A stretch of 64,000 nt of DNA from Escherichia coli (lineage in GTDB: Bacteria; Pseudomonadota; Gammaproteobacteria; Enterobacterales; Enterobacteriaceae), in assembly GCF_045037415.1 (NCBI RefSeq), contig NZ_CP173438.1, one strand, 5' to 3'. Shown here piece by piece: positions 60,027 through 64,000 of the stretch. Both the position numbers and the translations under genes were made by a program. Every line of letters begins with the position of its first letter. Position 1 is the first letter of the stretch. The notes beneath the pieces are model-generated. The model searched no databases and was not told the DNA's origin. It saw only the letters and a list, made by a program, of their open reading frames with translations.

Positions 60027-60920
<894 letters not shown>

Positions 60921-60949
60921 TTACCTCATCAATCGCTTATCGTTATATG

Positions 60950-60995
60950 TTGTGTTGTGCACATCTATCCGTTTAGACGTCCAGATGTAAAGATG
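60950..60995 (-). promoter_or_regulatory. metF promoter with tandem MetJ-box-like 8-mers
   Basis: Minus strand reads ACATCTGGACGTCTAAACGGATAGATGT, resembling repeated AGACGTCT met boxes, just upstream of metF. Confidence 0.6.
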
Positions 60996-61213
60996 AAGGA
61001 AAAGCCGAAGGGCGTCAACCGAAAAATAACCAATGATGGTGAGGAAAAATCAGGGAAGATGAAAAAAACTCATCTTAATTAGAGGCGATAAAAGATTTCT
61101 CTATAGCGCAATCCACCTCGCACGTTTTGACTCATATTCTGACAACACAGCGACACCTGGGCTAATTCGAAAAACAACGTCCTGCCACCGGATGGTGATG
61201 TTAAGGCATCTGA

Positions 61214-61241
61214 TTCGGCCTGCGCCCTCGCGTAGGCCGAA
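61214..61241. repeat. REP-like imperfect palindrome
   Basis: ttcggcctgcg-ccctcg-cgtaggccgaa; no adjacent T-run, so probably not an intrinsic terminator. Confidence 0.35.
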
Positions 61242-61298
61242 TACAGGATCTGCGCAATCAACGGGTAACAAACAGTTGAGTCAATTCAGTGCGCACTT

Positions 61299-62852
61299 TT
61301 ATTTGATATCCTTCACGCGCATACCGTTGAGCTGTTCATCCGTAATGGTGTTGCCCGCTTTGAAGTAATCAACCACCGCGTGATAAACGTAATAACCGCC
61401 CGTTGTGTTACGCGCTTTCCCTTCGGTAAAGGCGGTAAAACCATCTCCACCATCAGCAAGGAAACTCTGAGTAGCAATGTGATAAACCGTCGCATCTTCA
61501 ATGGGTTTGCCATTCAAAGTCAGTGTGATTACCCGCTGACCAACCGGCCTGTTGCTGTCGTACTTCATTTCCAGGCCTTTCGATACCTGTAAAACGCCAT
61601 TGCTTAAACTTGCGCCGTGTTCCATCAGACTGCGTAATTGTTTACCCATGAGTTCCATCGTCACCAGTTCGTTGGGGAACGGAAACGTACTGATGACGCC
61701 GCCCATCGTGATCGCCCCTGCGGGGATCTCATTGCGGATACCACCAGAGTTTGTTAACGCCAGTTGGGTGTTTTTACCCGCCGCTACCAATAAAGCGTCA
61801 GCCGCCAGGTTCCCGAGGGAAGCCGATTCACCATAGGCACGTTTTAATTCAACCGGCGATTGCGCCACCGTTTGTTGCACCACTTCATCAAGCTTTTTAT
61901 TCCAGCCGTCGATCACCTGTTTCGTTTGCGGATCGGGCTTCCACTCGTCAGCGTAAATGGTTTTAAGCTCGAAGTTTTTCACCGTAAAATTATGCGGCTT
62001 CTCTTTGTAGTCGAGAACCAGTTTGCCCACATCAATCCCGCCGCTGTCAGTGGAGAGGATGAGCGTATTGCCGACTTTAATCGGTTCCGGCGTACCCACA
62101 TGTGCATGTCCGGTGATCAAAATATCCAGCCCTTTCACCTGACTTGCCGTCTGAATATCTTTATCCAACGCGCGACGCACATCTGTGCCTCCCATACTGG
62201 ACTGGCGGGCTGGAACACCTTCGTGGATCAGGGCGACGGTCAAATCAACCTTGCCTTTGAGTTCATCGATATAACGTTGTAGCCATTTAATTTCATCGCG
62301 CGCTTCAATACCCACGCGCGTGGCAGCAGATACCGTATCATTAAAGGCAAATACTCCGTGCAAACCAATAACGCCTATTTTCACACCGTCTTTTTCGATG
62401 ATGGTATAGGGCTTATCCCAGAATGATTTACTGCTGTTCTGATAAAAAATATTGCCCTGCACAATAGGGAATTTTGCCTGGCTCAACTGTAATAATGTGT
62501 TGTCCCAGCCGTGGTCAAATTCATGGTTGCCTATTGTGACGGCATCAAACGGCATAGTATTCATAATATCGATAATAGCCTTACCTTTGGTCAGGCTGCT
62601 GATATATGGCCCGGTAAAATAGTCGCCCGCATCAAAAAACCATGTCGCTTTATTTTTTGCTTTTTCTTGCTTAACCAGCGTAGTGATATTTGCCCAGCCG
62701 CCAATATCCCGTTTACCGTCAGCGATCCACGGCACTTTATAAGGCTCGACATGTGCATGGAGGTCGTTGGTATAAATGATGGTGACATCTTTAGCGCAAG
62801 CCCAGAATGGCAGTGTTAATGCGATACCCGCAGCAAGTATTTTAATTTTCAT
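61299..62852 (-). CDS. Secreted bifunctional metallophosphatase / 5'-nucleotidase-family protein
   Basis: 517 aa; N-terminal signal peptide [20 protein letters not shown]; calcineurin-like motifs DLHAH, GDYF, GNHEFD, GHAH; C-terminal 5'-nucleotidase-type domain; not at this locus in K-12 as I recall it. Confidence 0.8.
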
Positions 62853-62984
62853 AAACAGTCCCTTTCAGTGAGATAAAGGATTGCTACATTACGTTCTGAA
62901 AGACTTATTTATGTGAGAGTAATCACATCCGCAGGGGATAGTTGCCGGACAAAATCAACGACCTTGTGAAATCGTTGGTGATAT

Positions 62985-64000
62985 ATGTCGACTCTGTTTA
63001 CGATTAATGCCTGTAAGTCGTTTGGTTGCCGTAATTTAGGGCAGCCAACATCGACAGATTATAGCTGGCCCGACTATCGACTGGGTTATCCGGCACTGCA
63101 CTGTCGGGCATGTGGCAGTTACCCGCCGTTGTTTGACGAGCAACAATTTCGTGACTGGTTGACAGTTCACTTATCTACTTTTGCAACAGAGAAAGGCCAT
63201 TTTTGCCCGGTATGTTATGGCACAGAGACGATTTGTTATGGTCACAATCCACAGGGTTCGCAACGCATTCAATGCCGTAACTGCAAAAAAGTATGGACAC
63301 CCAAACAATATCAGAAAGAAATAACGACTCCCGAAATAATCGAAACGGTTGCTTTGCTCGTGCCATTTCAGGGAGTCAGCAGCGGGCAGAAACTGTATGT
63401 TTTAATCAGTTTTGATGCTCTTCGCGGTAATATTCTTCATCTTTCTACTAATTACACGCAGCATCAGGCTGGAGAAAGTCTGCATTATCGATACAGAGGA
63501 AATGCAGAACCAGAGTTACACGACAATAATATTGTACAACGCGTTGATATGCGCGAAGCACAATTTCTACGCCGCAGTCAGTTTGATGAAATTCAGTATG
63601 GCAGCGCAGCGCTCAAGCGCAATGCCAAAGGCGCTATTCTGCGTCCGGTTATCACTGCACACGGGCATTTCAGAGTACTGAATATTTTATTCCCTACAGT
63701 AAAAACACATGTAATTTCACACGAGTGTTTTTTAAGAGGTGCCATTATTACGGCCTGGGCTGATCTGTTTCGCCAACAGCAAGGTGAAATTTGGTTTATT
63801 GAAGAGGAAATAGCTGACGATACCGATAATATGCCCTGGCGTTTTCAGGGAAAAACTTATCACGGCTGGTGGAAAAATCAGTGGCAACTCTGGGTTCAGG
63901 GAAAAAATCGTAAAATGGTATGTGCATTAACGGGCGGAAAGAGTAGCAAAGCAGAAATGCTCTCTTTAGCAACCAGCAGACATTTTATCGACTGGCTACA
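62985..64000 (+). CDS. Cys-rich zinc-ribbon protein, 3'-truncated by window end (at least 338 codons); function unknown, possibly transposase-like
   Basis: ATG at 62985 preceded by in-frame TGA; frame stays open to position 64000; two CxxC...CxxC clusters (CKSFGC..HCRACG and FCPVCYG..QRIQCRNCKKVW); absent from the ORF track because no stop lies inside the window. Confidence 0.6.
   Translation, partial: MSTLFTINACKSFGCRNLGQPTSTDYSWPDYRLGYPALHCRACGSYPPLFDEQQFRDWLTVHLSTFATEKGHFCPVCYGTETICYGHNPQGSQRIQCRNCKKVWTPKQYQKEITTPEIIETVALLVPFQGVSSGQKLYVLISFDALRGNILHLSTNYTQHQAGESLHYRYRGNAEPELHDNNIVQRVDMREAQFLRRSQFDEIQYGSAALKRNAKGAILRPVITAHGHFRVLNILFPTVKTHVISHECFLRGAIITAWADLFRQQQGEIWFIEEEIADDTDNMPWRFQGKTYHGWWKNQWQLWVQGKNRKMVCALTGGKSSKAEMLSLATSRHFIDWL

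Follow-up and report, generated by a model that had tools for sequence, protein, structure and literature searches.

The 5'-nucleotidase superfamily contains several described enzymes with which a new member can be compared, among them UshA, a periplasmic 5'-nucleotidase and UDP-sugar hydrolase, and CpdB, both of Escherichia coli, the Thermus thermophilus 5'-nucleotidase (PDB 2Z1A) and CD73, the ecto-5'-nucleotidase of vertebrates. The solved structure closest to the protein considered here is the PDB 'Nucleotidase' 3IVD/3IVE, the putative 5'-nucleotidase c4898 of E. coli CFT073, a structural-genomics deposit with uridine and cytidine that is not known to have an accompanying paper. The chromosomal region in question, from metL to metF, has been designated GR 31 and is common to CFT073, BEN2908 and other model strains, in passages that independently propose a role in nucleoside processing and transport (PMC12928451, 2026). 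Here we analyse the nucleotidase gene NT5a and its divergent zinc-ribbon partner, ZnR, in a 64,000-nt stretch of E. coli DNA (contig NZ_CP173438.1 of assembly GCF_045037415.1; the whole stretch is hereafter called the window). NT5a is already known, its structure being solved and its locus described, and it is a common accessory gene. New here are a conserved CRP site at the centre of the control region and the character of ZnR, which combines a transposase fold and the absence of a conserved acidic triad with a single-copy, nucleotidase-linked existence. We favour, with moderate confidence, the reading that NT5a is induced by CRP and, as a periplasmic nucleotidase, supplies nucleosides for uptake.

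NT5a as an exported metallophosphatase

NT5a lies at 61299..62852 on the minus strand, has an ATG start and encodes 517 amino acids (aa); the protein corresponds to the CFT073 WP_000694070-type and ST131 WP_000694068.1 proteins. Pfam and an alignment with UshA place a Metallophos (calcineurin-like) catalytic domain at residues 24-252 (62097..62783, minus strand) and a 5'-nucleotidase C-terminal, substrate-binding domain at residues 334-477 (61422..61853, minus strand). Both exceed their gathering thresholds (PF00149 Metallophos, 47.9 bits against a cut-off of 21.5; PF02872 5_nucleotid_C, 132.3 bits against 23.6) and they follow one another in the N-to-C order of the UshA/CD73 type. Active-site residues were mapped by pairwise alignment with the K-12 UshA sequence as reference. 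The metal ligands D30, H32, D77, N109, H210, H249 and H251 correspond to UshA D41, H43, D84, N116, H217, H252 and Q254, the last being the sole change at the metal site and a common substitution. The catalytic Asp-His dyad, H110/D113, matches UshA H117/D120, and the ligands and dyad are unvarying across 14 relatives. Key residues of the nucleotide pocket are likewise present: R373, F392, N394, F464 and D470 align with UshA R410, F429, N431, F498 and D504, thereby supplying the stacking pair (F392/F464), the phosphate contact (R373) and the ribose contacts (N394/D470). In the segment that holds UshA R375/R379, R338 is the only Arg of NT5a, at the level of the alignment. The ratio of nonsynonymous to synonymous divergence (dN/dS) of 0.02-0.13 points to purifying selection.

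Codons 1-20 (62793..62852, minus strand) encode a predicted signal peptide, which was assessed by inspection, not by SignalP, and by comparison with relatives. A basic n-region (K2/K4) is followed by a hydrophobic stretch whose Kyte-Doolittle 9-mer mean is 2.3, and the peptide ends in A-x-A; this n-h-c layout, with small residues at -3 and -1, is that of a Sec-dependent peptide cleaved by signal peptidase I, the predicted site being A-C-A followed by K. The Ala at -1 is unvarying in the 14 relatives, in which S, F, M, L or Y can stand in place of Cys19. Therefore, cleavage by signal peptidase I is likelier than lipidation and is the likely processing of NT5a. We rejected a lipoprotein matured by signal peptidase II, given the variable Cys19 and the non-canonical FWAC context.

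Taken together, these features make the enzyme class secure as far as sequence can establish it: NT5a is predicted to belong to the UshA/CD73 family of 5'-nucleotidases, and to be a binuclear metallophosphatase that is exported. The initial annotation had proposed a secreted metallophosphatase, and the Sec signal, the two Pfam domains and the full set of UshA metal ligands agree with it; the ligands, whose absence on proper alignment it had named as telling against the assignment, are all present. It had also remarked that NT5a, at 517 aa, falls short of the length of UshA (550 aa) and of CpdB, and this stands, the NCBIfam CpdB model having a length of 648 positions.

Placement in a characterised subfamily was rejected for each candidate. 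The UshA equivalog model (NF007109) gave 151.4 bits in two stretches against a cut-off of 600. The two CpdB models (NF006938 and TIGR01390) gave 99.8 and 97.8 bits against 486 and 883, on the N-terminal domain only. NadN (TIGR01530) reached 132.4 bits against 436, and SoxB (TIGR04486) 152.8 bits against 550, with sox genes not found nearby. Scores below cut-off mean that the specificity of NT5a is not transferable from any known enzyme, and by these models NT5a is a superfamily member outside every characterised subfamily. The one near-identical relative of known structure is 3IVD/3IVE, at 99% identity, whose chain covers residues 19-517 of the window protein. At each of the 5-6 differences among 499 aligned residues the PDB sequence has the CFT073 NT5a residue, which fits the attribution of the structures to CFT073.

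The divergent control region and ZnR

Between the divergent ATGs of NT5a and ZnR, the open reading frame coordinates leave a control region of 132 bp (62853..62984); the pairing and spacer are as first annotated. At 62912..62927 lies a perfect CRP consensus, TGTGAgagtaaTCACA, in the middle of the region, with the NT5a ATG 59 nt away on one side and the ZnR ATG 57 nt away on the other. It is the only perfect match to TGTGA-N6-TCACA in the window, where 0.09 would be expected by chance. An alignment of 20 control regions, either orthologous or paralogous and drawn from about ten genera, shows perfect half-sites at 14/20 loci and one-off half-sites at 5/20, and the 6-nt spacer between them occurs in 13 distinct forms; fixed half-sites around a variable spacer are the pattern expected for a functional CRP site. 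Judged by the conservation of a consensus site among orthologous promoters, both genes are predicted members of the cAMP-CRP regulon. In several genera, half-sites resembling those of CytR (TGCAAC/TTGCAT) could be seen by eye beside the CRP site, which is itself single.

The 132-bp region contains no consensus sigma-70 promoter, which fits activator dependence. Candidate -10 hexamers were found by reading: TAATGT for NT5a (62886..62891, minus strand), of which TAAnGT is kept in most loci, and CAAAAT for ZnR (62950..62955, plus strand), where a GATTTTG block is conserved. These would set the CRP site at about -41.5 for NT5a and about -42 for ZnR. Two further conserved elements might serve as operators. 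One is the palindrome CAACGA-N10-TCGTTG (62956..62977), just 5' of the ZnR ATG, whose arms have 0-2 mismatches in 18/20 loci. The other is an inverted repeat, CTTTCAG...CTGAAAG (62862..62902), conserved in the alignment, that flanks the NT5a -10 and 5' untranslated region and overlaps the ribosome-binding site with one arm. An RNA hairpin was considered for the palindrome and rejected, as its arm substitutions are one-sided and consistent with neither transcript. A scan of 60900-63100 with Rfam models, accepting E values up to 1, matched no RNA family.

ZnR starts at 62985 on the plus strand and runs to the end of the window (62985..64000); in full it encodes 376 aa and extends 115 nt beyond the window end. 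The protein carries eight near-invariant Cys in two Cys4 ribbons and has the RNase H-like fold of DDE transposases and integrases. There are sub-threshold matches to the N-terminal zinc-binding models of IS1, IS1595 and IS256, and one relative exceeds the InsA cut-off (28.2 against 26.1 bits). Among 20 members of the ZnR family there is no invariant Asp or Glu that could form a DDE triad, only E247 being near-invariant; the residues that are invariant in the alignment are His, Arg, Trp, Tyr and Asn. A helix-turn-helix-like insert of some 50 aa is present in longer relatives and missing from the E. coli type. With 65 clusters at E <=1e-30 among 1.84 billion representatives the family is small, and no Pfam model covers its core, ten remote relatives included. 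ZnR occurs in one copy per locus, always by nucleotidase genes, and this adjacency extends as far as Proteus, Providencia, Serratia and Enterovibrio, at 23-38% identity. Its dN/dS of 0.10-0.17 indicates purifying selection.

An active DDE transposase or insertion sequence was rejected, there being no triad, no terminal repeats or target duplication and no multiple or mobile copies. Compared with the zinc-ribbon DDE transposases of IS1, IS1595 and IS256/ISCth4, ZnR has neither a conserved triad nor element ends, and it is a single syntenic copy in fixed partnership with nucleotidase genes. We read it, from its fold and residue conservation, as a putative domesticated transposase, and a role as local regulator is plausible. 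The literature searched held nothing relevant on domesticated transposases in bacteria. A more specific proposal, that ZnR is a catalytically dead DDE derivative now dedicated to regulating, or to sensing nucleic acid or nucleotides for, a cAMP-CRP-dependent nucleotide-harvesting module, is tentative and less likely than not. Such a module would bring together nucleotidase paralogues and Tsx-type channels, joined in some genera by sulfatases, and would be conserved from Escherichia to Proteus and Enterovibrio; the palindrome and the inverted repeat described above would be the candidate operators.

Three further observations concern ZnR itself. The ST131 and CFT073 alleles, both from B2 strains, diverge with a dS of 0.98 and a dN of 0.165, compared with a dS of 0.038 for the adjoining NT5a; this gap suggests a recombination boundary in or beside ZnR that tracks the presence of downstream genes. 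In strain AVS0456 (NZ_CP124490.1) an IS1A insertion splits ZnR, annotated there twice as 'cytoplasmic protein'. Lastly, an inverted repeat with 27-nt arms lies in the 3' end of ZnR, at about 64006-64064 in window numbering (L001:15107-15165), just downstream of the convergent metL stop, and may be the metBL terminator within the ZnR coding sequence.

Distribution and history of the locus

The gene order in the window is katG-metF-[NT5a(-), ZnR(+)]-metL. Genome comparison identifies metF (60027..60917, minus strand) as the core-genome flank and, against K-12-type genomes, shows the variable block to begin on its left at about 61070. An ST131 chromosome is 100% identical over the metF-metL stretch. 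At least 80% of the stretch 60900-64000 is held by 1840/5426 complete E. coli genomes (about 34%), and the others match the metF end only; in a K-12-type genome the pair is missing, and metF and metL are separated by about 350 bp. In a synteny scan that took one genome per species, the order metB-metL-ZnR-NT5-...-metF recurs in several Citrobacter species and in Klebsiella, Kosakonia, Phytobacter, Superficieibacter and Kluyvera. The same placement recurs in Salmonella enterica, on a contig that is catalogued as a plasmid, and overall the pair is syntenic at metL-metF in at least seven genera. No terminal inverted repeats or target duplication were found at the NT5a-ZnR block.

Since the same metL-metF site is occupied in many genera of Enterobacteriaceae, the locus is not a recent import, and the simplest history to be drawn from these comparisons is that it is ancestral and was lost in K-12-type lineages. 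The G+C content dips to 0.43-0.45 over ZnR, against 0.55-0.60 in metL, and was weighed below synteny. The 'acquired context' of the initial annotation must accordingly be given up: besides the synteny and the lack of terminal repeats and duplications, the neighbourhood comparison finds in 1840/5426 genomes just what that annotation had said would count against it, a conserved E. coli gene that is common at this site.

In the compact form of the locus the last codons of ZnR overlap the metL 3' end. Kosakonia and Phytobacter have this form too, and Pseudocitrobacter shares its ZnR C-terminal sequence. Both observations rule out that the compact locus arose by recent deletion of a CFT073-type cluster; by this comparison, the two-gene form is an old arrangement. 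Elsewhere the site holds other genes. A Salmonella record (L080:3648-5506) has an mscS-like gene and a 332-aa hypothetical gene between metL and ZnR, and Citrobacter and Klebsiella have a LysR-type gene plus others between NT5 and metF, which suggests that the locus gained different extra genes in different genera. The PLSDB 'plasmid' records with the locus include whole chromosomes (4.9-5.4 Mb) and chromosomal contigs filed wrongly, for example this Salmonella record, which is linear, 80 kb long and carries metB-metL-...-metF-katG.

CFT073 carries an extended version at the same site, metF-NT5a-ZnR-NT5b-NT5c-Tsx-like-metL (extension at L078:3850-7997). NT5b shares 56% and NT5c 68% identity with NT5a, both keep all catalytic residues, and the Tsx-like outer-membrane nucleoside channel scores 492.8 bits against the NCBIfam Tsx cut-off of 311. 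This type of extension is present in 659/5426 complete E. coli genomes. A second locus, found in some E. coli as well as in Citrobacter, Enterobacter and E. albertii, has one ZnR and, after it, a tandem array of 2-4 nucleotidase paralogues and a Tsx-family gene. It lies beside kdsA in one E. coli strain (L022:1585-11399), where it also includes a radical-SAM gene, and comparable second loci occur on L024, L025, L021 and L026. In Salmonella arizonae and Klebsiella spallanzanii the relatives stand beside a sulfatase, a radical-SAM/SPASM maturase and a Tsx-family channel, and in Providencia beside a sulfatase, a major facilitator superfamily (MFS) transporter and a PNP/UDP-family phosphorylase. 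Genes for sulfatases and radical-SAM/SPASM (sulfatase-maturase-like) proteins recur by ZnR-nucleotidase pairs in three gene orders (L075:1450-8530, L036:2489-8533 and L029:3528-11961). One mosaic E. coli NT5 allele (P0011) has NT5a-type ends and an NT5c-type middle with a 20-aa insertion, LQGLDNDNNNRFDKSS, which suggests recombination between nucleotidase paralogues.

Proposed role and comparison with known systems

In the reading that we favour, NT5a would be exported by Sec and its signal peptide cut off by signal peptidase I. In the periplasm it would act as a two-metal phosphoesterase, dephosphorylating nucleotides that are unable to cross the inner membrane, and the released nucleosides would pass to uptake and catabolism. 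cAMP-CRP probably activates NT5a at a class II promoter that shares its single central CRP site with the divergent ZnR gene, and ZnR would be the likeliest local DNA-binding regulator. The case for this physiological role is built from the CRP site, from gene context in sister strains and from analogy with UshA and CpdB; the substrate, activation by CRP and the regulatory role of ZnR are the parts that we infer. Tsx-family channels, a PNP/UDP phosphorylase and an MFS transporter adjoin relatives in other genera and lend it support. Nucleotide scavenging, one of two roles first suggested for the gene, is the best-supported reading, and the accompanying caution that function is not determinable from sequence alone still applies to the substrate.

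Several points weigh against this role. No NCBIfam equivalog (UshA, CpdB, NadN or SoxB) meets its cut-off on NT5a, and biochemical substrate data for the protein were not found in the searchable literature. Class II geometry at both promoters is deduced from the candidate -10 hexamers. Moreover, the window strain has neither NT5b, NT5c nor the Tsx-like gene, so that the argument from context is borrowed from other strains, and the sulfatase and radical-SAM neighbours may hint at sulfated or sulfonucleotide substrates.

This last point leads to the proposal that NT5a acts on a special substrate and not on ordinary nucleoside monophosphates, such as a sulfonucleotide (adenosine phosphosulfate, APS, or phosphoadenosine phosphosulfate, PAPS), a nucleotide sugar, NAD or a sulfated nucleoside. 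The sulfatase and radical-SAM/SPASM genes beside relatives in Salmonella arizonae/Klebsiella spallanzanii, in Providencia and at the second E. coli locus speak for it. So do the arrays of up to four tandem paralogues at 51-68% identity, which suggest split specificities, and the comparable sub-threshold scores of SoxB-type and NadN-type models. However, a sulfatase gene is present in neither the window locus nor the CFT073 locus, NT5a keeps the Phe stack and the ribose- and phosphate-binding residues of UshA, and the ligands of 3IVD/3IVE are plain uridine and cytidine; we regard a special substrate as unlikely. Alternatively, NT5a might mainly degrade extracellular signalling nucleotides (cyclic di-nucleotides, 2',3'-cyclic nucleoside monophosphates or the ATP/adenosine axis) and serve as a host-interaction factor of extraintestinal pathogenic E. 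coli (ExPEC), as has been suggested for CpdB, CdnP and SntA. CpdB and CdnP belong to the same superfamily, the locus is enriched in the listed ExPEC strains (ST131, CFT073, 83972, and uropathogenic and avian pathogenic strains), and PMC9958556 documents CpdB-like enzymes as pro-virulent, which we count in favour of a signalling role. Against it, the CpdB model scores 99.8 bits where 486 are needed, on one domain; the locus is also kept in environmental and plant-associated genera (Kosakonia, Phytobacter and Rahnella); and CRP control with Tsx and PNP neighbours favours nutrition. We therefore hold a signalling role to be quite unlikely.

The two remaining explanations concern the pair of genes as a whole. 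If the window version were a functionless, decaying remnant of the CFT073-type cluster, the missing NT5b, NT5c and Tsx genes would be explained, as would the IS1 that splits ZnR in at least one strain. This is very improbable, as neither reading frame is disrupted and purifying selection acts on both, the promoter elements are conserved, and the compact form is old (it occurs in Kosakonia and Phytobacter, with a C-terminus common to Pseudocitrobacter). Least probable of all, to a degree that we consider nearly negligible, is that NT5a and ZnR form a recently acquired mobile element or its remnant, a transposase with cargo. The zinc ribbon of IS1/IS1595 type and the DDE-transposase/integrase fold would suit such an element, and so would the presence of the block in some E. 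coli only and the G+C dip over ZnR (0.43-0.45 against 0.55-0.60 in metL). Yet the ZnR family has no invariant acidic residue and the block no terminal inverted repeats or target duplication; ZnR is a single copy by nucleotidase genes, at one chromosomal site in at least seven genera and with a dN/dS of 0.10-0.17; and the 'plasmid' matches are mislabelled chromosomes.

Roughly one E. coli genome in three, with the ST131 and CFT073 lineages among them, has 1-3 periplasmic nucleotidases more than K-12. Models of nucleotide, extracellular DNA or extracellular RNA use in the gut or urinary tract that are built on UshA, CpdB and AphA alone are incomplete for such strains. If ZnR proves to be a regulator, it would be a clean case of transposase domestication in bacteria, fixed beside nucleotidase genes over two orders. 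The residual interest of the locus thus lies in the substrate of NT5a and in its transposase-derived partner.

The comparison with known systems can be drawn at several distances. 3IVD/3IVE represents the allele of another B2 strain, and the deposit speaks for fold and ligands, not activity. GR 31 is the same chromosomal region, and its ORF 4 (1554 bp) corresponds to NT5a; it holds three nucleotidases and a Tsx gene where the window has one nucleotidase, and the passages of PMC12928451 on GR 31 are silent on a zinc-ribbon gene and on CRP. Among solved relatives other than NT5a itself, the best matches are 2Z1A (E 4.9e-46) and CD73 (about 1e-32), with both domains aligned. Both are distant, and CD73 is a dimer anchored by glycosylphosphatidylinositol, with disulfides that NT5a lacks. 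CpdB, a 2',3'-cyclic phosphodiesterase/3'-nucleotidase, shares the superfamily and the periplasm; its alignment with NT5a is limited to the N-terminal domain, residues 19-256. Its promoter is reportedly modulated by cAMP-CRP (Liu and Beacham 1990). UshA differs from NT5a in that identity is 26%, NT5a is 33 aa shorter (517 against 550), UshA Q254 is replaced by His in NT5a, and a single Arg (R338) stands where UshA has R375/R379, at the level of the alignment. It resembles NT5a in its two-domain build, its export to the periplasm, its metal ligands, Asp-His dyad and Phe pair, and the equivalents of R410, N431 and D504.

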